Shown: positions 2,201 through 50,480 of the stretch, one piece after another | Layout: the number at the start of each line of letters is the position of its first letter | Position numbering within the stretch: position 1 is the stretch's first letter | Assembly (NCBI GenBank): GCA_964016885.1 | Contig: OZ024763.1 | Location: 20,026,001 to 20,090,000 of the forward strand | DNA length: 64,000 nt | Direction: 5' to 3' | DNA from: Eledone cirrhosa | Lineage: Eukaryota | Made by a program: the position numbers and the translations under genes | Notes under the pieces: model-generated | The model's database searches: none | Told to the model about the DNA's origin: nothing | Seen by the model: the letters and a program-made list of their open reading frames with translations, nothing else

Positions 2201-2259
2201 TTTCAGTATGTCTAAATCTTTATTTCTCTAAGAATATATGTTCTCTATATTACAGAGAT

Positions 2260-2447
2260 AATTGTTTCTACTTTTGGCACAAGGCCAGCAATTACCCAGT
2301 ACATTACTGGTACTTTATTCTATCGACCCCGTAAGGATGAAAGGCAAAGTTAACCTCGGCGAAATTTGAACTCAGATCATAAAGGGACGCAACTCTATGC
2401 TTCAAAGCACGGCGTCCGACCCTCTACCAATACTGCCAATCCACCGC
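2260..2447 (-). mobile_element. tRNA-derived SINE (family A) inserted in the first 79-bp unit, with target-site duplication
   Basis: Matches copies at 26520, 35110, 38910 and 62070; flanked by (C)AGAGATAAT at 2253-2262 and 2447-2456. Confidence 0.85.
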
Positions 2448-5400
2448 AGAGATAATATTTTAGAGTTGGCTGTGTTTTATATGTCTAAATCTTGGGTTCT
2501 ATAATAATATATATTGTCTATATTACAGAGATAATATTTTAGAGTTGGCTGTGTTTTATATGTCTAAATCTTGGGTTCTATAATAATATATATTGTCTAT
2601 ATTACAGAGATAATATTTTAGAGTTGACTGTGTTTTATATGTCTAAATCTTGGGTTCTATAATAATATATATTGTCTATATTACAGAGATAATATTTTAG
2701 AGTTGGCTGTGTTTTATATGTCTAAATCTTGGGTTCTATAATAATATATATTGTCTATATTACAGAGATAATATTTTAGAGTTGGCTGTGTTTTATATGT
2801 CTAAATCTTGGGTTCTATAATAATATATATTGTCTATATTACAGAGATAATATTTTAGAGTTGACTGTGTTTTATATGTCTAAATCTTGGGTTCTATAAT
2901 AATATATATTGTCTATATTACAGAGATAATATTTTAGAGTTGGCTGTGTTTTATATGTCTAAATCTTGGGTTCTATAATAATATATATTGTCTATATTAC
3001 AGAGATAATATTTTAGAGTTGACTGTGTTTTATATGTCTAAATCTTGGGTTCTATAATAATATATATTGTCTATATTACAGAGATAATATTTTAGAGTTG
3101 GCTGTGTTTTATATGTCTAAATCTTGGGTTCTATAATAATATATATTGTCTATATTACAGAGATAATATTTTAGAGTTGGCTGTGTTTTATATGTCTAAA
3201 TCTTGGGTTCTATAATAATATATATTGTCTATATTACAGAGATAATATTTTAGAGTTGACTGTGTTTTATATGTCTAAATCTTGGTTTCTATAATAATAT
3301 ATATTGTCTATATTACAGAGATAATATTTTAGAGTTGGCTGTGTTTTATATGTCTAAATCTTAGTTTCTATAATAATATATATTGTCTATATTACAGAGA
3401 TAATATTTTAGAGTTGGCTGTGTTTTATATGTCTAAATCTTGGGTTCTATAATAATATATATTGTCTATATTACAGAGATAATATTTTAGAGTTGGCTGT
3501 GTTTTATATGTCTAAATCTTAGTTTCTATAATAATATATATTGTCTATATTACAGAGATAATATTTTAGAGTTGGCTGTGTTTTATATGTCTAAATCTTA
3601 GTTTCTATAATAATATATATTGTCTATATTACAGAGATAATATTTTAGAGTTGACTGTGTTTTATATGTCTAAATCTTGGGTTCTATAATAATATATATT
3701 GTCTATATTACAGAGATAATATTTTAGAGTTGGCTGTGTTTTATATGTCTAAATCTTGGTTTCTATAATAATATATATTGTCTATATTACAGAGATAATA
3801 TTTTAGAGTTGGCTGTGTTTTATATGTCTAAATCTTGGTTTCTATAATAATATATATTGTCTATATTACAGAGATAATATTTTAGAGTTGGCTGTGTTTT
3901 ATATGTCTAAATCTTGGTTTCTATAATAATATATATTGTCTATATTACAGAGATAATATTTTAGAGTTGGCTGTGTTTTATATGTCTAAATCTTGGTTTC
4001 TATAATAATATATATTGTCTATATTACAGAGATAATATTTTAGAGTTGGCTGTGTTTTATATGTCTAAATCTTGGTTTCTATAATAATATATATTGTCTA
4101 TATTACAGAGATAATATTTTAGAGTTGGCTGTGTTTTATATGTCTAAATCTTGGTTTCTATAATAATATATATTGTCTATATTACAGAGATAATATTTTA
4201 GAGTTGGCTGTGTTTTATATGTCTAAATCTTGGTTTCTATAATAATATATATTGTCTATATTACAGAGATAATATTTTAGAGTTGGCTGTGTTTTATATG
4301 TCTAAATCTTAGTTTCTATAATAATATATATTGTCTATATTACAGAGATAATATTTTAGAGTTGGCTGTGTTTTATATGTCTAAATCTTGGTTTCTATAA
4401 TAATATATATTGTCTATATTACAGAGATAATATTTTAGAGTTGGCTGTGTTTTATATGTCTAAATCTTAGTTTCTATAATAATATATATTGTCTATATTA
4501 CAGAGATAATATTTTAGAGTTGGCTGTGTTTTATATGTCTAAATCTTAGTTTCTATAATAATATATATTGTCTACATTACAGAGATAATATTTTAGAGTT
4601 GGCTGTGCTTTATATGTCTAAATCTTAGTTTCTATAATAATATATATTGTCTACATTACAGAGATAATATTTTAGAGTTGGCTGTGTTTTATATGTCTAA
4701 ATCTTGGTTTCTATAATAATATATATTGTCTATATTACAGAGATAATATTTTAGAGTTGGCTGTGTTTTATATGTCTAAATCTTGGTTTCTATAATTATA
4801 TTACAGAGATAATATTTTAGAGTTGGCTGTGTTTTATATGTCTAAATCTTAGTTTCTATAATAATATATATTGTCTATATTACAGAGATAATATTTTAGA
4901 GTTGACTGTGTTTTATATGTCTAAATCTTGGTTTCTATAATAATATATATTGTCTATATTACAGAGATAATATTTTAGAGTTGGCTGTGTCTTATATGTC
5001 TAAATCTTAGTTTCTATAATAATATATATTGTCTACATTACAGAGATAATATTTTAGAGTTGGCTGTGTTTTATATGTCTAAATCTTGGTTTCTATAATA
5101 ATATATATTGTCTATATTACAGAGATAATATTTTAGAGTTGACTGTGTTTTATATGTCTTAATCTTGGTTTCTATAATAATATATATTGTCTATATTACA
5201 GAGATAATATTTTAGAGTTGGCTGTGTTTTATATGTCTAAATCTTAGTTTCTATAATAATATATATTGTCTATATTACAGAGATAATATTTTAGAGTTGG
5301 CTATGATTTATATGTCTAAATCTTAGTTTCTATAATAATATATATTGTCTATATTACAGAGATAATATTTCAGAGTTGGCTGTGTTTTATATGTCTAAAT

Positions 5401-8400
5401 CTTGGTTTCTATAATAATATATATTGTCTATATTACAGAGATAATATTTTAGAGTTGGCTATGATTTATATGTCTAAATCTTAGTTTCTATAATAATATA
5501 TATTGTCTATATTACAGAGATAATATTTTAGAGTTGGCTGTGTTTTATATGTCTAAATCTTGGTTTCTATAATAATATATATTGTCTATATTACAGAGAT
5601 AATATTTTAGAGTTGGCTGTGTTTTATATGTCTAAATCTTAGTTTCTATAATAATATATATTGTCTATATTACAGAGATAATATTTTAGAGTTGGCTGTG
5701 TTTTATATGTCTAAATCTTAGTTTCTATAATAATATATATTGTCTATATTACAGAGATAACATTTTAGAGTTGGCTGTTTTATATGTCTAAATCTTAGTT
5801 TCTATAATAATATATATTGTCTATATTACAGAGATAATATTTTAGAGCTGGCTGTGTTTTATATGTCTAAATCTTAGTTTCTATAATAATATATATTGTC
5901 TATATTACAGAGATAATATTTTAGAGTTGGCTGTGTTTCATATGTCTAAATCTTGGTTTCTATAATAATATATATTGTCTATATTACAGAGATAATATTT
6001 TAGAGTTGGCTGTGTTTTATATGTCTAAATCTTAGTTTCTATAATAATATATATTGTCTATATTACAGAGATAATATTTTAGAGTTGGCTGTGTTTTATA
6101 TGTCTAAATCTTAGTTTCTATAATAATATATATTGTCTATATTACAGAGATAATATTTTAGAGTTGGCTGTGTTTTATATGTCTAAATCTTAGTTTCTAT
6201 AATAATATATATTATCTATATTACAGAGATAATATTTTAGAGTTGGCTGTGTTTTATATGTCTAAATCTTAGTTTCTATAATAATATATATTGTCTATAT
6301 TACAGAGATAATATTTTAGAGTTGGCTCTGTTTTATATGTCTAAATCTTGGTTTCTATAATAATATATATTGTCTATATTACAGAGATAATATTTTAGAG
6401 TTGGCTGTGTTTTATATGTCTAAATCTTAGTTTCTATAATAATATATATTGTCTATATTACAGAGATAATATTTTAGAGTTGGCTGTGTTTTATATGTCT
6501 AAATCTTGGTTTCTATAATAATATATATTGTCTATATTACAGAGATAATATTTCAGAGTTGGCTGTGTTTTATATGTCTAAATCTTGGTTTCTATAATAA
6601 TATATATTGTCTATATTACAGAGATAATATTTTAGAGTTGGCTATGATTTATATGTCTAAATCTTAGTTTCTATAATAATATATATTGTCTATATTACAG
6701 AGATAATATTTTAGAGTTGGCTGTGTTTTATATGTCTAAATCTTGGTTTCTATAATAATATATATTGTCTATATTACAGAGATAATATTTTAAAGTTGGC
6801 TGTGTTTTATATGTCTAAATCTTGGGTTCTATAATAATATATATTGTCTATATTACAGAGATAATATTTTAGAGTTGGCTGTGTTTTATATGTCTAAATC
6901 TTGGGTTCTATAATAATATATATTGTCTATATTACAGAGATAATATTTTAGAGTTGGCTGTGTTTTATATGTCTAAATCTTGGGTTCTATAATAATATAT
7001 ATTGTCTATATTACAGAGATAATATTTTAGAGTTGGCTGTGTTTTATATGTCTAAATCTTAGTTTCTATAATAATATATATATTGTCTATATTACAGAGA
7101 TAATATTTTAGAGTTGACTGTGTTTTATATGTCTAAATCTTGGGTTCTATAATAATATATATTGTCTATATTACAGAGATAATATTTTAGAGTTGGCTGT
7201 GTTTTATATATCTAAATCTTAGTTTCTATAATAATATATATTGTCTATATTACAGAGATAATATTTTAGAGTTGGCTGTGTTTTATATGTCTAAATCTTA
7301 GTTTCTATAATAATATATATTGTCTATATTACAGAGATAATATTTTAGAGTTGGCTGTGTTTTATATGTCTAAATCTTAGTTTCTATAATAATATATATT
7401 GTCTATATTACAGAGATAATATTTTAGAGTTGACTGTGTTTTATATGTCTAAATCTTGGGTTCTATAATAATATATATTGTCTATATTACAGAGATAATA
7501 TTTTAGAGTTGGCTGTGTTTTATATGTCTAAATCTTGGGTTCTATAATAATATATATTGTCTATATTACAGAGATAATATTTTAGAGTTGGCTGTGTTTT
7601 ATATGTCTAAATCTTAGTTTCTATAATAATATATATTGTCTATATTACAGAGATAATATTTTAGAGTTGGCTGTGTCTTATATGTCTAAATCTTAGTTTC
7701 TATAATAATATATATTGTCTATATTACAGAGATAATATTTTAGAGTTGGCTGTGTTTTATATGTCTAAATCTTAGTTTCTATAATAATATATATTGTCTA
7801 TATTACAGAGATAATATTTTAGAGTTGGCTGTGTTTTATATGTCTAAATCTTGGTTTCTATAATTATATTACAGAGATAATATTTTAGAGTTGGCTGTGT
7901 TTTATATGTCTAAATCTTAGTTTCTATAATAATATATATTGTCTATATTACAGAGATAATATTTTAGAGTTGGCTGTGTTTTATATGTCTAAATCTTGGT
8001 TTCTATAATAATATATATTGTCTATATTACAGAGATAATATTTTAGAGTTGGCTGTGTTTTATATGTCTAAATCTTAGTTTCTATAATAATATATATTGT
8101 CTATATTACAGAGATAATATTTTAGAGTTGGCTGTGTTTTATATGTCTAAATCTTGGTTTCTATAATAATATATATTGTCTATATTACAGAGATAATATT
8201 TTAGAGTTGGCTGTGTTTTATATGTCTAAATCTTGGGTTCTATAATAATATATATTGTCTATATTACAGAGATAATATTTTAGAGTTGACTGTGTTTTAT
8301 ATGTCTAAATCTTGGGTTCTATAATAATATATATTGTCTATATTACAGAGATAATATTTTAGAGTTGGCTGTGTTTTATATGTCTAAATCTTAGTTTCTA

Positions 8401-11400
8401 TAATAATATATATTGTCTATATTACAGAGATAATATTTTAGAGTTGGCTGTGTTTTATATGTCTAAATCTTGGTTTCTATAATAATATATATTGTCTATA
8501 TTACAGAGATAATATTTTAGAGTTGGCTGTGTTTTATATGTCTAAATCTTGGTTTCTATAATAATATATATTGTCTATATTACAGAGATAATATTTTAGA
8601 GTTGGCTGTGTTTTATATGTCTAAATCTTAGTTTCTATAATAATATATATTGTCTATATTACAGAGATAATATTTTAGAGTTGGCTGTGTTTTATATGTC
8701 TAAATCTTAGTTTCCATAATAATATATATTGTCTATATTACAGAGATAATATTTTAGAGTTGGCTGTTTTATATGTCTAAATCTTAGTTTCTATAATAAT
8801 ATATATTGTCTATATTACAGAGATAATATTTTAGAGCTGGCTGTGTTTTATATGTCTAAATCTTAGTTTCTATAATAATATATATTGTCTATATTACAGA
8901 GATAATATTTTAGAGTTGGCTGTGTTTTATATGTCTAAATCTTAGTTTCTATAATAATATATATTGTCTATATTACAGAGATAATATTTTAGAGTTGGCC
9001 GTGTTTTATATGTCTAAATCTTGGGTTCTATAATAATATATATTGTCTATATTACAGAGATAATATTTTAGAGTTGGCTGTGTTTTATATGTCTAAATCT
9101 TGGGTTCTATAATAATATATATTGTCTATATTACAGAGATAATATTTTAGAGTTGGCTGTGTTTTATATGTCTAAATCTTGGTTTCTATAATAATATATA
9201 TTGTCTATATTACAGAGATAATATTTTAGAGTTGGCTGTGTTTTATATGTCTAAATCTTGGTTTCTATAATAATATATATTGTCTATATTACAGAGATAA
9301 TATTTTAGAGTTGGCTGTGTTTTATATGTCTAAATCTTGGGTTCTATAATAATATATATTGTCTATATTACAGAGATAATATTTTAGAGTTGGCTGTGTT
9401 TTATATGTCTAAATCTTGGGTTCTATAATAATATATATTGTCTATATTACAGAGATAATATTTTAGAGTTGGCTGTGTTTTATATGTCTAAATCTTGGGT
9501 TCTATAATAATATATATTGTCTATATTACAGAGATAATATTTTAGAGTTGGCTGTGTTTTATATGTCTAAATCTTGGTTTCTATAATAATATATATTGTC
9601 TATATTACAGAGATAATATTTTAGAGTTGGCTGTGTTTTATATGTCTAAATCTTAGTTTCTATAATAATATATATTGTCTATATTACAGAGATAATATTT
9701 TAGAGTTGGCTGTGTTTTATATGTCTAAATCTTAGTTTCTATAATAATATATATTGTCTATATTACAGAGATAATATTTTAGAGTTGGCTGTGTTTTATA
9801 TGTCTAAATCTTAGTTTCTATAATAATATATATTGTCTATATTACAGAGATAATATTTTAGAGTTGGCTGTGTTTTATATGTCTAAATCTTGGTTTCTAT
9901 AATAATATATATTGTCTATATTACAGAGATAATATTTTAGAGTTGGCTGTGTTTTATATGTCTAAATCTTAGTTTCTATAATAATATATATTGTCTATAT
10001 TACAGAGATAATATTTTAGAGTTGGCTGTGTTTTATATGTCTAAATCTTAGTTTCTATAATAATATATATTGTCTATATTACAGAGATAATATTTTAGAG
10101 TTGGCTGTGTTTTATATGTCTAAATCTTGGGTTCTATAATAATATATATTGTCTATATTACAGAGATAATATTTTAGAGTTGGCTGTGTTTTATATGTCT
10201 AAATCTTGGGTTCTATAATAATATATATTGTCTATATTACAGAGATAATATTTTAGAGTTGGCTGTGCTTTATATGTCTAAATCTTGGGTTCTATAATAA
10301 TATATATTGTCTATATTACAGAGATAATATTTTAGAGTTGGCTGTGTTTTATATGTCTAAATCTTGGTTTCTATAATAATATATATTGTCTATATTACAG
10401 AGATAATATTTTAGAGTTGGCTGTGTTTTATATGTCTAAATCTTAGTTTCTATAATAATATATATTGTCTATATTACAGAGATAATATTTTAGAGTTGGC
10501 TGTGTTTTATATGTCTAAATCTTAGTTTCTATAATAATATATATTGTCTATATTACAGAGATAATATTTTAGAGTTGGCTGTGTTTTATATGTCTAAATC
10601 TTAGTTTCTATAATAATATATATTGTCTATATTACAGAGATAATATTTTAGATTTGGCTGTGTTTTATATGTCTAAATCTTAGTTTCTATAATAATATAT
10701 ATTGTCTATATTACAGAGATAATATTTTAGAGTTGACTGTGTTTTATATGTCTAAATCTTGGTTTCTATAATAATATATATTGTCTATATTACAGAGATA
10801 ATATTTTAGAGTTGGCTGTGTTTTATGTCTAAATCTTAGTTTCTATAATAATATATATTGTCTATATTACAGAGATAATATTTTAGAGTTGGCTGTGTTT
10901 TATATGTCTAAATCTTAGTTTCTATAATAATATATATTGTCTATATTACAGAGATAATATTTTAGAGTTGGCTGTGATTTATATGTCTAAATCTTAGTTT
11001 CTATAATAATATATATTGTCTATATTACAGAGATAATATTTTAGTGTTGGCTGTGTTTTATATGTCTAAATCTTAGTTTCTATAATAATATATATTGTCT
11101 ATATTACAGAGATAATATTTTAGATTTGGCTGTGTTTTATATGTCTAAATCTTAGTTTCTATAATAATATATATTGTCTATATTACAGAGATAATATTTT
11201 AGAGTTGACTGTGTTTTATATGTCTAAATCTTGGTTTCTATAATAATATATATTGTCTATATTACAGAGATAATATTTTAGAGTTGGCTGTGTTTTATGT
11301 CTAAATCTTAGTTTCTATAATAATATATATTGTCTATATTACAGAGATAATATTTTAGAGTTGGCTGTGTTTTATATGTCTAAATCTTAGTTTCTATAAT

Positions 11401-12637
11401 AATATATATTGTCTATATTACAGAGATAATATTTTAGAGTTGGCTGTGATTTATATGTCTAAATCTTAGTTTCTATAATAATATATATTGTCTATATTAC
11501 AGAGATAATATTTTAGAGTTGGCTGTGTTTTATATGTCTAAATCTTAGTTTCTATAATAATATATATTGTCTATATTACAGAGATAATATTTTAGATTTG
11601 GCTGTGTTTTATATGTCTAAATCTTAGTTTCTATAATAATATATATTGTCTATATTACAGAGATAATATTTTAGAGTTGACTGTGTTTTATATGTCTAAA
11701 TCTTGGTTTCTATAATAATATATATTGTCTATATTACAGAGATAATATTTTAGAGTTGGCTGTGTTTTATGTCTAAATCTTAGTTTCTATAATAATATAT
11801 ATTGTCTATATTACAGAGATAATATTTTAGAGTTGGCTGTGTTTTATATGTCTAAATCTTAGTTTCTATAATAATATATATTGTCTATATTACAGAGATA
11901 ATATTTTAGAGTTGGCTGTGTTTTATATGTCTAAATCTTAGTTTCTATAATAATATATATTGTCTATATTACAGAGATAATATTTTAGAGTTGGCTGTGA
12001 TTTATATGTCTAAATCTTAGTTTCTATAATAATATATATTGTCTATATTACAGAGATAATATTTTAGATTTGGCTGTGTTTTATATGTCTAAATCTTAGT
12101 TTCTATAATAATATATATTGTCTATATTACAGAGATAATATTTTAGAGTTGGCTGTGTTTTATATGTCTAAATCTTAGTTTCTATAATAATATATATTGT
12201 CTATATTACAGAGATAATATTTTAGAGTTGGCTGTGTTTTATATGTCTAAATCTTAGTTTCTATAATAATATATATTGTCTATATTACAGAGATAATATT
12301 TTAGAGTTGGCTGTGTTTTATATGTCTAAATCTTAGTTTCTATAATAATATATATTGTCTATATTACAGAGATAATATTTTAGAGTTGGCTGTGTTTTAT
12401 ATGTCTAAATCTTAGTTTCTATAATAATATATATTGTCTATATTACAGAGATAATATTTTAGAGTTGGCTGTGTTTTATATGTCTAAATCTTAGTTTCTA
12501 TAATAATATATATTGTCTATATTACAGAGATAATATTTTAGAGTTGGCTGTGATTTATATGTCTAAATCTTAGTTTCTATAATAATATATATTGTCTATA
12601 TTACAGAGATAATATTTTAGAGTTGGCTGTGTTTTAT
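2448..12637 (+). repeat. 79-bp tandem array (~129 copies) of the DEG/ENaC intron-end/acceptor/exon-start junction
   Basis: Period 79 (TAGAGTTGGC at 2461 and 2540). Unit ATGTCTAAATCTTRGKTTCTATAATAATATATATTGTCTATATTACAG|AGATAATATTTTAGAGTTGGCTGTGTTTTAT. A diverged partial unit lies at 2207-2262. Confidence 0.97.
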
Positions 12638-12698
12638 CGAGAACTCAGTTACGAAGAAATTAAACACCAAATAGGCTATTACTTTTTTTCCCTCCTCT
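12607..12698 (+). CDS. DEG/ENaC (ASIC-like) sodium channel, penultimate coding exon
   Basis: ttacag|A GAT AAT...CTC CTC T|gtaagt; encodes DNILELAVFYRELSYEEIKHQIGYYFFSLL, resembling the ASIC pre-TM2 segment (NILVLDIFFE.LNYETIEQKKAYE..GLL); phase is compatible with the next exon. Confidence 0.9.
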
Positions 12699-12744
12699 GT
12701 AAGTTGTTGTTATTTTTGTTATTCATTCTTTTTCTAAAACAAAT

Positions 12745-12783
<39 letters not shown>

Positions 12784-13755: not shown

Positions 13756-14265
13756 AGGTTTAGCGTCCGTGTTCCACGCTTGCATGGGTTTGGACGGGGG
13801 TTTTCCCACTTGAGGCAAGAGTGGTTGTCTTGCTCGCATAGGACTGTCTGGCGGGTTTTCTACAGTTGGATGCCCTTCCTAACACCAACCACATTTACAG
13901 TGTGGGGCTGGGAGGTTTTTACCGTGTTGCCTACACGGCCACATTACAGCGTGGACTGTCTGGCGGGTTTTCTACAGCTGGATGCCCTTCCTAACACCAA
14001 CCACATTTACAGTGTGGGGCTGGGAGGTTTTTACCGTGTTGCCTACACGGCCACATTTACAGCGTGGACTGTGTGTTTTTTGTCGTGACACCTACACGAT
14101 CTCATTTGTTTCGGCCTGGATGTTGTGGCACCAACATAACTTTACATTGAAAGGGGCGGTGTGGAGGGACGGGGGTGTGTTTTGATAGAGGTGCCTACTG
14201 ACTGTAGTAGGTTTTTACTTTGTATTTAGGTAAGGCGGGTCTTCTCTATTACTGAGTACCGCCAA
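13740..14265 (-). mobile_element. Dispersed SINE/LINE-tail element with internal ~118-bp tandem duplication
   Basis: Near-identical copy in opposite orientation at ~51810-52178 and a partial copy at ~53350-53457; (GAT)n tail. Confidence 0.75.
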
Positions 14266-14401: not shown

Positions 14402-14526
14402 GTGATATCGGCGGATCAATGGGTCTGTTCCTTGGTGCCAGTGTTTTGACCATTTTTGAAATTGCAGAGTTTTTCTTTGGTCAGTCTTTGAGAGCAGTTT
14501 TCCAAGTTGGTAATAGGGTAAAATGA
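14402..14526 (+). CDS. DEG/ENaC (ASIC-like) channel, terminal coding exon with TM2
   Basis: ttccag|GT GAT ATC GGC GGA...; spliced translation [41 protein letters not shown], containing the DIGG.MGLF.GAS pore signature. Confidence 0.93.
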
Positions 14527-39099: not shown

Positions 39100-42000
39100 T
39101 AAAATAAAAGCTGCCCAAGTGTTTCTATCATTGGATTTTTGCTGAATTGCGGTGACTTTTGCATTCAGTTCTTTTGTGACCATTCTTTGGAATGTGGTCT
39201 TCGGTCTTTGTCTGTTGATGTAGCAGAAGACACTCATGTCTCTTGTGGTGACCTCCTGGCAGTTGATGTAACAGAAGACACTCATGTCTCTTGTGGTGAC
39301 CTCCTGGCAGTTGATGTAGCAGAAGACACCCCTGTCTCTTGTGGTGATCTCCTGGCAGTTGATGTAGCAGAAGACACTCATGTCTCTTGTGGTGACCTCC
39401 TGGTAGTTGATGTAGCAGAAGACACTCATGTCTCTTGTGGTGACCTCCTGGCAGTTGATGTAGCAGAAGACACTCATGTCTCTTGTGGTGACCTCCTGGT
39501 AGTTGATGTAGCAGAAGACACTCATGTCTCTTGTGGTGACCTCCTGGCAGTTGATGTAGCAGAAGACACTCATGTCTCTTGTGGTGACCTCCTGGCAGTT
39601 GATGTAGCAGAAGACACTCATGTCTCTTGTGGTGACCTCCTGGTAGTTGATGTAGCAGAAGACACTCATGTCTCTTGTGGTGACCTCCTGGTAGTTGATG
39701 TAGCAGAAGACACTCATGTCTCTTGTGGTGATCTCCTGGTAGTTGATGTAGCAGAAGACACTCATGTCTCTTGTGGTGACCTCCTGGTAGTTGATGTAGC
39801 AGAAGACACTCATGTCTCTTGTGGTGACCTCCTGGCAGTTGATGTAGCAGAAGACACTCATGTCTCTTGTGGTGACCTCCTGGCAGTTGATGTAACAGAA
39901 GACACTCATGTCTCTTGTGGTGATCTCCTGGCAGTTGATGTAGCAGAAGACACTCATGTCTCTTGTGGTGACCTCCTGGCAGTTGATGTAGCAGAAGACA
40001 CTCATGTCTCTTGCGGCAGACTCCTGGCAGTTGATGTAACAGAAGACACTCATGTCTCTTGTGGTGACCTCCTGGCAGTTGATGTAGCAGAAGACACTCA
40101 TGTCTCTTGTGGTGACCTCCTGGTAGTTGATGTAGCAGAAGACACTCATGTCTCTTGTGGTGACCTCCTGGTAGTTGATGTAGCAGAAGACACTCATGTC
40201 TCTTGTGGTGATCTCCTGGTAGTTGATGTAGCAGAAGACACTCATGTCTCTTGTGGTGACCTCCTGGTAGTTGATGTAGCAGAAGACACTCATGTCTCTT
40301 GTGGTGACCTCCTGGCAGTTGATGTAGCAGAAGACACTCGTGTCTCTTGTGGTGACCTCCTGGCAGTTGATGTAACAGAAGACACTCATGTCTCTTGTGG
40401 TGATCTCCTGGCAGTTGATGTAGCAGAAGACACTCATGTCTCTTGTGGTGACCTCCTGGCAGTTGATGTAACAGAAGACACTCATGTCTCTTGTGGTGAC
40501 CTCCTGGCAGTTGATGTAGCAGAAGACACTCATGTCTCTTGCGGCAGACTCCTGGCAGTTGATGTAACAGAAGACACTCATGTCTCTTGTGGTGACCTCC
40601 TGGCAGTTGATGTAACAGAAGACACTCATGTCTCTTGTGGTGACCTCCTGGCAGTTGATGTAACAGAAGACACTCATGTCTCTTGTGGTGATCTCCTGGC
40701 AGTTGATGTAGCAGAAGACACTCATGTCTCTTGTGGTGACCTCCTGGTAGTTGATGTAGCAGAAGACACTCATGTCTCTTGTGGTGATCTCCTGGCAGTT
40801 GATGTAGCAGAAGACACTCATGTCTCTTGTGGTGACCTCCTGGCAGTTGATGTAACAGAAGACACTCATGTCTCTTGTGGTGACCTCCTGGCAGTTGATG
40901 TAGCAGAAGACACTCATGTCTCTTGTGGTGACCTCCTGGTAGTTGATGTAGCAGAAGACACTCATGTCTCTTGTGGTGACCTCCTGGTAGTTGATGTAGC
41001 AGAAGACACTCATGTCTCTTGTGGTGACCTCCTGGCAGTTGATGTAACAGAAGACACTCATGTCTCTTGTGGTGACCTCCTGGTAGTTGATGTAGCAGAA
41101 GACACTCATGTCTCTTGTGGTGACCTCCTGGTAGTTGATGTAGCAGAAGACACTCATGTCTCTTGTGGTGATCTCCTGGCAGTTGATGTAACAGAAGACA
41201 CTCATGTCTCTTGTGGTGACCTCCTGGTAGTTGATGTAGCAGAAGACACTCATGTCTCTTGTGGTGACCTCCTGGCAGTTGATGTAGCAGAAGACACTCA
41301 TGTCTCTTGTGGTGACCTCCTGGTAGTTGATGTAGCAGAAGACACTCATGTCTCTTGTGGTGACCTCCTGGTAGTTGATGTAGCAGAAGACACTCGTGTC
41401 TCTTGTGGTGATCTCCTGGCAGTTGATGTAGCAGAAGACGCTCATGTCTCTTGTGGTGATCTCCTGGCAGTTGATGTAACAGAAGACACTCGTGTCTCTT
41501 GTGGTGATCTCCTGGTAGTTGATGTAGCAGAAGACGCTCATGTCTCTTGTGGTGACCTCCTGGCAGTTGATGTAGCAGAAGACGCTCATGTCTCTTGTGG
41601 TGACCTCCTGGTAGTTGATGTAGCAGAAGACACTCATGTCTCTTGTGGTGACCTCCTGGCAGTTGATGTAGCAGAAGACGCTCATGTCTCTTGTGGTGAC
41701 CTCCTGGCAGTTGATGTAGCAGAAGACGCTCATGTCTCTTGTGGTGACCTCCTGGCAGTTGATGTAGCAGAAGACGCTCATGTCTCTTGTGGTGACCTCC
41801 TGGCAGTTGATGTAGCAGAAGACACTCATGTCTCTTGTGGTGACCTCCTGGCAGTTGATGTAGCAGAAGACACTCCTGTCTCTTGTGGTGACCTCCTGGT
41901 AGTTGATGTAGCAGAAGACACTCATGTCTCTTGTGGTGACCTCCTGGTAGTTGATGTAGCAGAAGACACTCATGTCTCTTGTGGTGATCTCCTGGCAGTT

Positions 42001-45000
42001 GATGTAGCAGAAGACACCCATGTCTCTTGTGGTGACCTCCTGGCAGTTGATGTAGCAGAAGACACTCCTGTCTCTTGTGGTGACCTCCTGGTAGTTGATG
42101 TAGCAGAAGACACTCATGTCTCTTGTGGTGACCTCCTGGTAGTTGATGTAGCAGAAGACGCTCATGTCACTTGTGGTGACCTCCTGGTAGTTGATGTAGC
42201 AGAAGACACTCATGTCTCTTGCGGCAGACTCCTGGTAGTTGATGTAACAGAAGACACTCATGTCTCTTGCAGTGACCTCCTGGCAGTTGATGTAGCAGAA
42301 GACACTCATGTCTCTTGTGGTGACCTCCTGGTAGTTGATGTAGCAGAAGACACTCATGTCTCTTGTGGTGACCTCCTGGCAGTTGATGTAGCAGAAGACA
42401 CTCATGTCTCTTGTGGTGACCTCCTGGTAGTTGATGTAGCAGAAGACACTCATGTCTCTTGCGGCAGACTCCTGGTAGTTGATGTAACAGAAGACACTCA
42501 TGTCTCTTGCAGTGACCTCCTGGCAGTTGATGTAGCAGAAGACACTCATGTCTCTTGTGGTGACCTCCTGGTAGTTGATGTAGCAGAAGACACTCATGTC
42601 TCTTGTGGTGACCTCCTGGCAGTTGATGTAGCAGAAGACACTCATGTCTCTTGTGGTGACCTCCTGGCAGTTGATGTAGCAGAAGACACTCATGTCTCTT
42701 GTGGTGATCTCCTGGTAGTTGATGTAGCAGAAGACACTCATGTCTCTTGCGGCAGACTCCTGGCAGTTGATGTAACAGAAGACACTCATGTCTCTTGCGG
42801 CAGACTCCTGGTAGTTGATGTAGCAGAAGACACTCATGTCTCTTGTGGTGACCTCCTGGTAGTTGATATAGCAGAAGACACTCATGTCTCTTGTGGTGAC
42901 CTCCTGGTAGTTGATGTAGCAGAAGACACTCATGTCTCTTGTGGTGACCTCCTGGCAGTTGATGTAGCAGAAGACACTCATGTCTCTTGTGGTGACCTCC
43001 TGGCAGTTGATGTAGCAGAAGACACTCATGTCTCTTGTGGTGATCTCCTGGTAGTTGATGTAGCAGAAGACACTCATGTCTCTTGCGGCAGACTCCTGGC
43101 AGTTGATGTAACAGAAGACACTCATGTCTCTTGCGGCAGACTCCTGGTAGTTGATGTAGCAGAAGACACTCATGTCTCTTGTGGTGACCTCCTGGTAGTT
43201 GATGTAACAGAAGACACTCATGTCTCTTGTGGTGACCTCCTGGCAGTTGATGTAACAGAAGACGCTCATGTCTCTTGTGGTGACCTCCTGGTAGTTGATG
43301 TAGCAGAAGACACTCATGTCTCTTGTGGTGACCTCCTGGTAGTTGATGTAACAGAAGACACTCATGTCTCTTGCGGCAGACTCCTGGTAGTTGATGTAAC
43401 AGAAGACACTCATGTCTCTTGTGGTGACCACCTGGTAGTTGATGTAACAGAAGACACTCATGTCTCTTGTGGTGATCTCCTGGCAGTTGATGTAGCAGAA
43501 GACACTCATGTCTCTTGTGGTGACCTCCTGGTAGTTGATATAGCAGAAGACACTCATGTCTCTTGTGGTGACCTCCTGGCAGTTGATGTAGCAGAAGACA
43601 CTCATGTCTCTTGTGGTGACCTCCTGGTAGTTGATGTAACAGAAGACACTCATGTCTCTTGTGGTGACCTCCTGGTAGTTGATGTAACAGAAGACACTCA
43701 TGTCTCTTGTGGTGACCTCCTGGTAGTTGATGTAACAGAAGACACTCATGTCTCTTGTGGTGACCTCCTGGCAGTTGATGTAACAGAAGACACTCATGTC
43801 TCTTGTGGTGACCTCCTGGTAGTTGATGTAGCAGAAGACACTCATGTCTCTTGTGGTGACCTCCTGGTAGTTGATGTAACAGAAGACACTCATGTCTCTT
43901 GTGGTGACCTCCTGGTAGTTGATGTAACAGAAGACGCTCATGTCTCTTGTGGTGACCTCCTGGTAGTTGATGTAACAGAAGACACTCATGTCTCTTGTGG
44001 TGACCTCCTGGCAGTTGATGTAACAGAAGACACTCATGTCTCTTGTGGTGACCTCCTGGCAGTTGATGTAGCAGAAGACACTCATGTCTCTTGTGGTGAT
44101 CTCCTGGTAGTTGATGTAGCAGAAGACACTCATGTCTTTTGTGGTGACCTCCTGGTAGTTGATGTAGCAGAAGACACTCATGTCTCTTGTGGTGACCTCC
44201 TGGTAGTTGATGTAGCAGAAGACACTCATGTCTCTTGTGGTGACCTCCTGGCAGTTGATGTAGCAGAAGACACTCATGTCTCTTGTGGTGACCTCCTGGT
44301 AGTTGATGTAGCAGAAGACACTCATGTCTCTTGTGGTGACCTCCTGGCAGTTGATGTAGCAGAAGACACTCATGTCTCTTGTGGTGACCTCCTGGTAGTT
44401 GATGTAACAGAAGACACTCATGTCTCTTGTGGTGACCTCCTGGTAGTTGATGTAACAGAAGACACTCATGTCTCTTGTGGTGACCTCCTGGCAGTTGATG
44501 TAACAGAAGACACTCATGTCTCTTGTGGTGATCTCCTGGCAGTTGATGTAGCAGAAGACACTCATGTCTCTTGTGGTGATCTCCTGGCAGTTGATGTAAC
44601 AGAAGACACTCATGTCTCTTGCGGCAGACTCCTGGTAGTTGATGTAACAGAAGACACTCATGTCTCTTGTGGTGACCTCCTGGCAGTTGATGTAACAGAA
44701 GACACTCATGTCTCTTGTGGTGACCTCCTGGTAGTTGATGTAGCAGAAGACACTCATGTCTCTTGTGGTGATCTCCTGGCAGTTGATGTAACAGAAGACA
44801 CTCATGTCTCTTGTGGTGACCTCCTGGTAGTTGATGTAGCAGAAGACACTCATGTCTCTTGTGGTGACCTCCTGGCAGTTGATGTAACAGAAGACACTCA
44901 TGTCTCTTGTGGTGACCTCCTGGCAGTTGATGTAACAGAAGACACTCATGTCTCTTGCGGCAGACTCCTGGCAGTTGATGTAACAGAAGACACTCATGTC

Positions 45001-46612
45001 TCTTGTGGTGACCTCCTGGCAGTTGATGTAACAGAAGACACTCATGTCTCTTGTGGTGATCTCCTGGCAGTTGATGTAGCAGAAGACACTCATGTCTCTT
45101 GTGGTGACCTCCTGGTAGTTGATGTAACAGAAGACACTCATGTCTCTTGTGGTGATCTCCTGGCAGTTGATGTAGCAGAAGACACTCATGTCTCTTGTGG
45201 TGATCTCCTGGTAGTTGATGTAGCAGAAGACACTCATGTCTCTTGTGGTGACCTCCTGGTAGTTGATGTAACAGAAGACACTCATGTCTCTTGTGGTGAC
45301 CTCCTGGCAGTTGATGTAGCAGAAGACACTCATGTCCCTTGTGGTGACCTCCTGGTAGTTGATGTAGCAGAAGACACTCATGTCTCTTGTGGTGACCTCC
45401 TGGTAGTTGATGTAGCAGAAGACACTCATGTCTCTTGTGGTGACCTCCTGGTAGTTGATGTAACAGAAGACACTCATGTCTCTTGTGGTGACCTCCTGGC
45501 AGTTGATGTAACAGAAGACACTCATGTCTCTTGTGGTGATCTCCTGGTAGTTGATGTAGCAGAAGACACTCATGTCTCTTGTGGTGACCTCCTGGTAGTT
45601 GATGTAGCAGAAGACACTCATGTCTCTTGTGGTGATCTCCTGGCAGTTGATGTAGCAGAAGACACTCATGTCTCTTGTGGTGACCTCCTGGTAGTTGATG
45701 TAGCAGAAGACACTCATGTCTCTTGTGGTGACCTCCTGGCAGTTGATGTAGCAGAAGACACTCATGTCTCTTGTGGTGACCTCCTGGCAGTTGATGTAAC
45801 AGAAGACACTCATGTCTCTTGTGGTGACCTCCTGGCAGTTGATGTAACAGAAGACACTCATGTCTCTTGCGGTGACCTCCTGGTAGTTGATGTAACAGAA
45901 GACACTCATGTCTCTTGTGGTGACCTCCTGGCAGTTGATGTAACAGAAGACACTCATGTCTCTTGTGGTGACCTCCTGGCAGTTGATGTAACAGAAGACA
46001 CTCATGTCTCTTGCGGTGACCTCCTGGTAGTTGATGTAACAGAAGACACTCATGTCTCTTGTGGTGACCTCCTGGCAGTTGATGTAACAGAAGACACTCA
46101 TGTCTCTTGTGGTGACCTCCTGGCAGTTGATGTAACAGAAGACACTCATGTCTCTTGTGGTGACCTCCTGGCAGTTGATGTAACAGAAGACACTCATGTC
46201 TCTTGCGGTGACCTCCTGGTAGTTGATGTAACAGAAGACACTCATGTCTCTTGTGGTGACCTCCTGGCAGTTGATGTAGCAGAAGACACTCATGTCTCTT
46301 GTGGTGATCTCCTGGCAGTTGCTGTAGCAGAAGACACTCAGTATGGAAGTTACTAAATGTATGCCAGATTTGATGACCAATTCATGTCAATCGTTAGTTT
46401 CAAACCTGAGCATAGAGATGTGTCTGCTCTGTGTGTGTGAAAATTTCTGCATTTCTTATGCAATCTTGGTATGTTACACCACAGATGATGTGCAGGCAGT
46501 TTGTGTGAAATATGTTCACTGCTTGTTTGTTTTTGTGTATGCACGATCCATGTCTCACATCCTTAAAGAAACACTGGCAGACATAGTGTATTATACATCC
46601 CTAACTTCAGAC
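39100..46612 (-). mobile_element. RTE-type LINE C-terminal remnant interrupted by the 48-bp array
   Basis: Upstream flank LKLGMYNTLCLPVFL*GCETW...RLT*IGH; downstream flank RQRPKTTFQRMVTKEL...DRNTW. Confidence 0.75.
39214..46340. repeat. 48-bp tandem array (~148 copies), LINE-derived
   Basis: Unit GTTGATGTARCAGAAGACACTCATGTCTCTTGTGGTGAYCTCCTGGYA; 16-aa periodicity in both giant ORFs. Confidence 0.97.
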
Positions 46613-49103: not shown

Positions 49104-49829
49104 ATTAATTAAGATTTTTCATTATTGTCAAAGAAGATACACTTGGGACCCAAATGATAAGAGGGCGGCGTTGGAATAAGGTGGAGGGTTGAAAAATCAG
49201 TAATTTTTCTAGGTTTACTCTGTTGATTTTTTAAAAAACCAGAATTAGTCGTTTAGTTTACATATTGAAATCCCAAACCATCCTATTTATTTTATAACGT
49301 ATGGAATTTCTAGTAATGTACTTTCCTTGTCATGTATAATGTTTATTAATGTCTAAAGAAATTTAATTGTTGCAGGAATGCTACCACTTAAAATAAAATT
49401 TCGCAGGAGATAGATTAACAAAATTTAATTTTGATGGTTGGGGGTCGGGTGAAATAAGAGCAGGGTGAGTGGGGTGGGAAAAATTGATAGGTAGGGTCGA
49501 TGATTATTCAAGATCCGAGAGTATGTAGCCGATCTCTCCCTTTGACTCACAGTAAATTGCAAACATTAAATCAATTTTAACGTGTGTGTGCGACAACGCA
49601 CACACAAAATAAAAATAAATTGGTCAGAAAATTGTGTAAATAAGGGAAATAACTCAACTAAAATTAAGTTTTCAAGGGAGGTAATCTTGTGGCTAATTTT
49701 TCAGATTTGTTTAGAAATGTAGAAAATCTCAAAAACAGGAAAATAGCCATCATTTGGTTTCTATGGTTGTATGCCCTTCTTAACATCAAACCAGGTTTAC
49801 AGCGTGGACTGGGTGCTTTTTATCGTTAC

Positions 49830-50480
49830 ACTAATACAACCACTTTGCAGTGAGGACTGGGTGTTTTTTGTCGTGACACTAACACAACCACTTTACAGTG
49901 TGGACTGAGTGCTTTTTGTTGTGACACCTTCAGGACCACTTTACAGTGTGGACTGAGTGCTTTTTGTTGTGACACATACAGGACCACTTTACAGTGTGGA
50001 CTGAGTGCTTTTTGTTGTGACACCTTCAGGACCACTTTACAGTGTGGACTGAGTGCTTTTTGTTGTGACACATACAGGACCACTTTACAGTGTGGACTGA
50101 GTGCTTTTTGTTGTGACACATACAGGACCACTTTACAGTGTGGACTGAGTGCTTTTTGTTGACACCTTCAGGACCACTTTACAGTGTGGACTGAGTGCTT
50201 TTTGTTGTGACACCTTCAGGACCACTTTACAGTGTGGACTGAGTGCTTTTTGTTGTGACACATACAGGACCACTTTACAGTGTGGACTGAGTGCTTTTTG
50301 TTGTGACACCTTCAGGACCACTTTACAGTGTGGACAGTGCTTTTTGTTGTGACACATACAGGACCACTTTACAGTGTGGACTGAGTGCTTTTTGTTGTGA
50401 CACATACAGGACCACTTTACAGTGTGGACTGAGTGCTTTTTGTTGTGACACTTACATGACCACTTTGAGCTGGGTGCTTT
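49830..50480. repeat. 48-bp minisatellite (~13 copies) derived from a SINE body, in MTFP1 intron 2
   Basis: Unit GGACCACTTTACAGTGTGGACTGAGTGCTTTTTGTTGTGACACCTTCA/ATACA; contiguous with SINE-like ATGCCCTTC.TAACA.CAA..TTTACAG at 49770. Confidence 0.88.

Follow-up and report, generated by a model that had tools for sequence, protein, structure and literature searches.

A large array of repeated splice acceptors in a DEG/ENaC gene of Eledone cirrhosa, most probably a neutral minisatellite of the mirage type

We describe a 10.2-kb tandem array in which the acceptor side of one exon of a DEG/ENaC ion channel gene is repeated about 129 times. The array lies in a 64,000-nt stretch of the Eledone cirrhosa genome (assembly GCA_964016885.1, contig OZ024763.1, positions 20,026,001 to 20,090,000 of the forward strand), called here the window. 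An earlier note on this DNA, made from its letters alone, had reported a 79-bp unit of 48 nt of intron end plus 31 nt of exon head in some 129 copies. Tandem Repeats Finder agrees, giving 129.4 copies with 95% matches at 2447-12637, each unit reading as 31 nt of exon head and then 48 nt of intron end. The array occupies 78% of a 13,107-bp intron, and only its copy at 12607 runs on into a unique 61-nt exon body and reaches the GTAAGT at 12699. Most probably we are dealing with a neutral minisatellite of the kind known as a mirage, whose last copy is chosen through exon definition. The array is thus likely a very large but harmless example of an already described repeat type.

The note's naming of the gene as a DEG/ENaC channel was borne out by matches of its exons to PF00858 (Pfam) and by alignment to acid-sensing ion channels (ASICs). 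Its best homologues are octopod proteins, and alignment of the orthologue and of the last exon to solved ASICs assigned a first transmembrane helix (TM1), a cysteine-rich extracellular region and a second transmembrane helix (TM2) with a GAS motif. Using tblastn with the Octopus vulgaris protein P0034, we located ten exons, all open and correctly ordered, between G000:C24:19912432 and window base 14526. The exon that carries the array is flanked by introns of 13.1 kb and 1.7 kb, and the exons concerned are as follows.

G000:C24:20023978-20025499: upstream exon, 1,522 nt, outside the window, its donor 501 bp before window base 1.
12607..12698, plus strand: functional exon of 92 nt (DNILELAVFYRELSYEEIKHQIGYYFFSLL) encoding the last extracellular segment and the start of TM2, with donor GTAAGT at 12699 (spliced contig, alignment).
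14402..14526, plus strand: last coding exon, TM2 with GAS motif, stop at 14524-14526 (ASIC alignment, contig end).

Two O. vulgaris proteins deposited as 'acid-sensing ion channel 1' X1/X2 (QHX41506.1 and QHX41507.1; P0034 and P0033) show the same exon order and the same long extracellular insertion; identity to the O. vulgaris protein is 72% in the long exon and 89% and 97% in the last two exons. ASIC is the depositor's label for these proteins, the labels of relatives vary (ASIC-like, del-10-like, uncharacterised), and our own assignment, judged from sequence, stays at the level of DEG/ENaC. Paralogues on C3 and C4 have a single acceptor at the exon in question, and among the 17 exon borders of the gene tested for nearby copies, only this one is amplified.

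Units were delimited by splitting at every CAG^AGATAA[T/C] (^ marks the cut), which gave 131 acceptor-like positions, namely 2256, 2450, 128 internal ones and 12607. The full units (n=129) are 79 nt long in 121 cases, 77 nt in five, 66 nt in two and 81 nt in one, and the mean divergence of a unit from the column majority is 1.1 nt. A 22-mer spanning the unit junction matches exactly at 109 places in the window, and a count over the entire 3.0-Gb assembly gives the same 109; the unit thus occurs at this locus alone, and the assembly contains the array once. The array, its internal blocks and the structures at its left end are listed below.

2447..12637, plus strand: 79-bp minisatellite containing the real acceptor and, from 2450 to 12528, 129 decoys (Tandem Repeats Finder, unit splitting).
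10638..12053, plus strand: higher-order block of 6 units (472 bp), about 3 repeats, tagged by rare variants (rare unit types).
2208..2255, plus strand: diverged copy of the 48-nt intron end at the 5´ boundary, acceptor AG at 2254-2255 (sequence).
2253..2262, plus strand: left member of a pair of 10-bp direct repeats (AG and initial 7 nt of exon head), identical to 2447-2456.
2263..2446, no strand assigned: 184-bp interspersed repeat, short interspersed nuclear element (SINE)-like, inside the first exon-head copy (blastn).
2256..2330, plus strand: candidate 75-nt in-frame stop-free cassette, from acceptor 2256 to a donor in the insert (prediction).

One coordinate of the earlier note had to be moved. 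It had let the array start at 2207, while the tandem array begins at 2447 and 2208-2262 is a separate, diverged copy cut by an insert. This boundary copy differs from the array majority at 6 of 48 intron bases and is likely the oldest copy; its exon head is broken after 7 nt by the 184-bp repeat, and the 10-bp direct repeats on both sides of the latter (2253-2262 and 2447-2456) are likely a target-site duplication. The repeat has 55 blastn hits in the 344 kb of searched sequence, the best near-full-length ones being 86-93% identical, and tRNA-type boxes on its minus strand are the reason why we presume it to be SINE-like. What precedes the acceptor at 2450 is the insert and not the intron part of the unit. 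Inside the insert, a donor-like CCC^GTAAGG at 2331 delimits the candidate cassette.

Within the array, rare unit types reappear at unit indices 104/110/116, 105/111/117 and 106/112/118, and a TAG allele forms a gradient, being found in 15, 22 and 30 of 43 units by successive thirds. Six-unit blocks together with an allele gradient are the pattern expected from unequal exchange. The low divergence of the units, the nesting of the blocks and the exclusion of the 5´ copy all speak for concerted evolution. The 3´ functional copy is not excluded from this homogenization, and the working acceptor at 12607 equals the array majority over -48..+31.

We next consider what the upstream acceptors would produce. 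The readings from 129 of them were translated, and every one stops within 11-25 codons, 46 being exactly DNILELAVFYMSKS followed by the stop and most others WFL/WVL or single-residue variants; the 130th (an AAC variant at 5755, read by eye) likewise stops inside its unit. Because these stops precede the last exon, which matches TM2, the pore helix would be lost. Two claims of the earlier note, that the last copy alone reaches the donor and that use of any upstream acceptor ends before TM2, therefore stand for all copies. The array contains neither AATAAA nor ATTAAA and so gives no support to termination inside it. As for the decoy tail, none of 56 proteins compared contains it; all of them come from other species and are thus uninformative on this allele.

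The decoys show no sign of being maintained. Although the AG is intact in all 130 upstream CAG sites, zero AG substitutions would be expected by chance with P=0.46, so that selection keeping the decoy AGs was not detected. Positions -14..+1 are not significantly spared (2 substitutions observed against 3.6 expected, P=0.27). In the exon heads of the 79-nt units, 11 of 13 distinct substitutions are non-synonymous, near the 81% expected at random, which argues against coding constraint on the decoy heads. Identity with the real acceptor extends over -48..+31 in 35 of the 130 upstream acceptors and over -30..+20 in 97 of them. Local acceptor sequence thus cannot make the choice between letter-identical sites, and whatever chooses the last copy lies downstream of +31.

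Evidence on actual splicing comes from four runs (X1-X4) of one study, of unrecorded kind and available as contigs only, which were compared over 12480-12745. In run X3, a single unbranched contig of 2,851 nt (depth 16) covers 12605-12700 without other letters. Its two loose ends continue, on the 5´ side, with the final bases of the upstream exon and, on the 3´ side, with the codons that open the last exon. The 2,642 nt that it has before 12607 agree with seven mapped exons totalling 2,373 nt and, in addition, the first coding exon. Given these exact exon joins and this length, the contig was taken as a spliced, nearly full-length coding sequence, and from the joins we infer that X3 is RNA. 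The gene is expressed, and a productive, unbranched path through 12607 exists. The contig joins the upstream exon directly to 12607 and lacks the 75-nt cassette 2256-2330. For 12480-12604, the intron part of the unit, there is no X3 contig, and this is not counted as evidence. With respect to regulated unproductive splicing, only the productive form was assembled, from contigs blind to minor or NMD-degraded forms (NMD, nonsense-mediated decay).

A plausible course of events can be proposed for the array. A tandem duplication across the acceptor would have made a second acceptor, and the SINE-like element would then have landed in the exon head of the upstream copy and isolated that copy from homogenization; duplication is placed before insertion because the unit joins the intron from the left of the insert to the exon from its right. 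Slippage and unequal exchange may subsequently have expanded and homogenized the remaining copies, the working acceptor included. Short exons between long introns are recognised across the exon, a principle known as exon definition, and the 92-nt exon, lying between long introns, would be recognised across its length in this way. Of all the acceptors, the last alone is closely followed by a 5´ splice site and could pair with a donor 92 nt downstream, and the GAA-rich unique exon body (three GAA triplets, against none in the exon head) perhaps helps in the choice. The earlier note had pointed out that exon definition favours an acceptor with a donor nearby, and this is the natural explanation for use of the last copy. 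The donor scores agree with it: against the donor consensus, the GT sites of the array reach at most 4 of 9 positions, the eight real donors of the gene 5-9. A rare slip to an upstream copy would yield a long exon with a stop far upstream of the last junction, likely an NMD substrate, and such leakage would be waste rather than regulation.

Comparable repeats are known. Mirages are tandem repeats spanning exon-intron boundaries, described in the amphioxus Adh3 and globin genes (PMC3087553), with further amphioxus cases in troponin C and PGBD5 (PMC3902484). They are reported to carry splice signals in many units, to be regularly spliced, unstable in length and subject to concerted evolution, and to have excluded boundary units (PMC3087553). 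The Eledone array agrees with these descriptions in that its unit spans the exon-intron boundary, its units carry AG signals, its copies are homogenized in concert with a boundary copy left out, and its unit length of 79 bp falls inside the mirage range of 10-160 bp (PMC3087553). Among the amphioxus globin mirages named, BflGb6 and BflGb9, the former has the same polarity (intron 3´ end plus exon 5´ part) but 6 and 3 units, against about 129 units over 10.2 kb here (PMC3087553); the Adh3 counts stand outside this comparison. The host is a cephalochordate there and a mollusc here, and the Eledone array further differs in that its 3´ functional copy is homogenized with the rest and that a SINE-like insert interrupts its 5´ copy.

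Human genes provide two more parallels. In CBS 844ins68, the intron/exon junction at the 5´ end of an exon is duplicated, splicing strongly prefers the distal site and the mRNA is normal (PMC2630376). As in Eledone, the duplicated junction is on the acceptor side and the distal site is used, but there are two sites instead of 131, and the duplication is an allele-level insertion and not a homogenized minisatellite. Donor-side minisatellites occur in F7 IVS7 (5-9 copies of 37 bp), 6-16 (25 pseudo-sites), CBS IVS13 (15-20), LAMIN B2 (10-15) and PDGF (16-18) (PMC1557585). They likewise repeat an identical splice site, of which the exon-adjacent one is mainly used; in contrast to the array described here, they sit on the donor side and have five- to twenty-fold fewer copies. 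A literature search lacking most subscription papers returned no cephalopod mirage and none with more than 100 acceptors, and larger published unit counts may exist.

The earlier note had suggested that copy number tunes productive versus decoy splicing. In such a rheostat, the decoys would compete with the real site and send transcripts to NMD or to a protein without TM2, so that array length would set the level of the channel. That no upstream acceptor has lost its AG and that all of them lead to a stop would suit this idea, as would the real acceptor being the most pyrimidine-poor of the nine scored in the gene (0.56 against 0.63-0.93), and splicing at many human loci is reported to be associated with tandem-repeat length. 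Yet chance suffices to account for the intact AGs, the C3 and C4 paralogues make do with one acceptor, the sole spliced contig is productive and unbranched, and published mirages are reported not to disturb splicing (PMC3087553, PMC3902484). With the only spliced contig using 12607 and the decoys bearing no sign of selection, the suggestion did not find support, and we regard a rheostat as quite improbable. Selection of the last copy by RNA structure, with decoy AGs paired to the intron part of the next unit and the last AG exposed, is very improbable as well. The terminal AG is predicted to be more open (0.84-0.89) than the internal mean (0.40-0.74) in five of seven folding windows, but in the other two it is equal or least open (0.55, 0.02), and the eight other real acceptors of the gene span 0.02-0.87, so that openness does not mark real acceptors. 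Masking of the decoys by structure was rejected as window-dependent and not robust.

A more ambitious combination can also be imagined, in which the array works as a device for splice choice on a channel of neuronal type. Allele length, which might be unstable in somatic cells, would then set the share of transcripts lost to NMD, and use of acceptor 2256 with donor 2331 could insert 25 residues in frame just before the last extracellular strand, yielding a lineage-specific variant. We consider this combination unlikely. The earlier note had also named, among the findings that would refute it, an unexpressed pseudogene and an array of few copies inflated by assembly. The gene is intact and yields a spliced product, and with its exons open and spliced, a pseudogene is ruled out. 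As to inflation, the window contains no N, the units show an ordered, non-periodic variant pattern with nested blocks, and in each of the runs X1, X2 and X4 the array is reduced to a loop of 109 nt, with a depth of 326, 260 and 345, respectively, or 3-4 per assembled copy. A true array of few copies would require about 100-fold depth per run, which is unlikely with 1.4 Gb of short contigs for a 3.0-Gb genome. Depth is, on the other side, uncalibrated against single-copy sequence, as the unique stretch 12638-12745 is uncovered in X1, X2 and X4; these runs may be the source of the assembly itself; and the copy number given is that of the assembly. The unit depth of 260-345 in three runs nevertheless answers in favour of the array, and that it truly has only a few copies is most improbable.

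Some observations do weigh against a neutral mirage spliced at its last copy by exon definition. The splicing evidence is one contig from one run of unrecorded kind and tissue, and the X3 sample differs from that of X1, X2 and X4, so that its array may be of another length. Contigs drop rare variants, NMD would hide decoy products, and the decoy and real paths share 33 nt, over which a 31-mer assembly cannot phase molecules. In 6-16 and CBS intron 13, the two nearest pseudo-sites are also used (PMC1557585), which makes some use of the copy at 12528 plausible. Substitutions in the units lean to the exon head, 14 of 21 falling there against 9.9 expected (P=0.052, base-matched; 13 of 20 and P=0.02 without base matching). 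This bias is not predicted by a purely neutral model. Finally, exon definition as the reason why the decoys are skipped is drawn from general knowledge of splicing and not from this animal.

Further repeats were noticed in and around the gene. A 21-bp x 33 array (G000:C24:20000191-20000883, L004) begins one base into the donor of an exon lying farther upstream in this gene. Its status as a splice-site duplicate was ruled out because the GT is not repeated, but with it at a donor and the 79-bp array at an acceptor, one gene has two arrays touching exon borders. The C4 paralogue contains an intronic 44-bp x 17 array (G000:C4:177198569-177199315, L026) that begins at the end of a SINE-like element and, not lying at an exon border, was likewise ruled out as a splice-site duplicate. 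Several AT-rich acceptors of this gene family have a copy of the SINE-like element ending no more than about 40 bp before them, near G000:C24:20009200-20009318 (L003), 20012940 (L002) and, in the C3 paralogue, 72087250. A second large minisatellite, 48 bp x 148.5, spans 7 kb at 39214-46340, 27 kb downstream of the 79-bp array. One plus and one minus frame run through it for about 2,400 codons without a stop; as the 48-bp unit itself has no stops in three frames, these long open frames may be due to chance. The same 112-bp unit stands in tandem at window positions 13841-14072 and at G000:C24:19952865-19953494, and a 48-bp unit related to it occurs at 49796-50466 and at 19908886. Such arrays look like repeat-derived minisatellites spread with a mobile element.

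With regard to the channel itself, the 1,522-nt exon adds about 470 residues to the extracellular domain compared with solved ASICs, an insertion common to mollusc homologues of 850-960 aa and to the C3 and C4 paralogues. Elsewhere in the genome, at G000:C23:268868-270499, PF00858 is matched over its full length by an intronless open frame of 639 aa. The O. vulgaris models P0002 and P0030 and P0044 of the cuttlefish cluster all terminate precisely where the long exon reaches its donor, and reading on into the intron gives an immediate stop. Such ends could be a recurrent intron-retention form without TM2 or an annotation artefact. We dropped the idea that the ends of P0002 and P0030 betray an array or gap in O. 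vulgaris, as P0044 shares the border and read-through stops at once.

Should it be true that allele length changes expression of the channel, a splice-site minisatellite would act as a heritable or somatic dial, although nothing here shows so. Taken as a neutral mirage, the array is ordinary in kind and extreme in size, with about 129 units where the literature consulted has no more than about 25. What is new are the size and the taxon, the kind having already been described in lancelets and humans. For annotation it serves as a warning, since such arrays mimic hundreds of exon starts. For the biology of splicing, it offers a natural test of exon definition, with 35 upstream acceptors identical to the real one over 79 nt.

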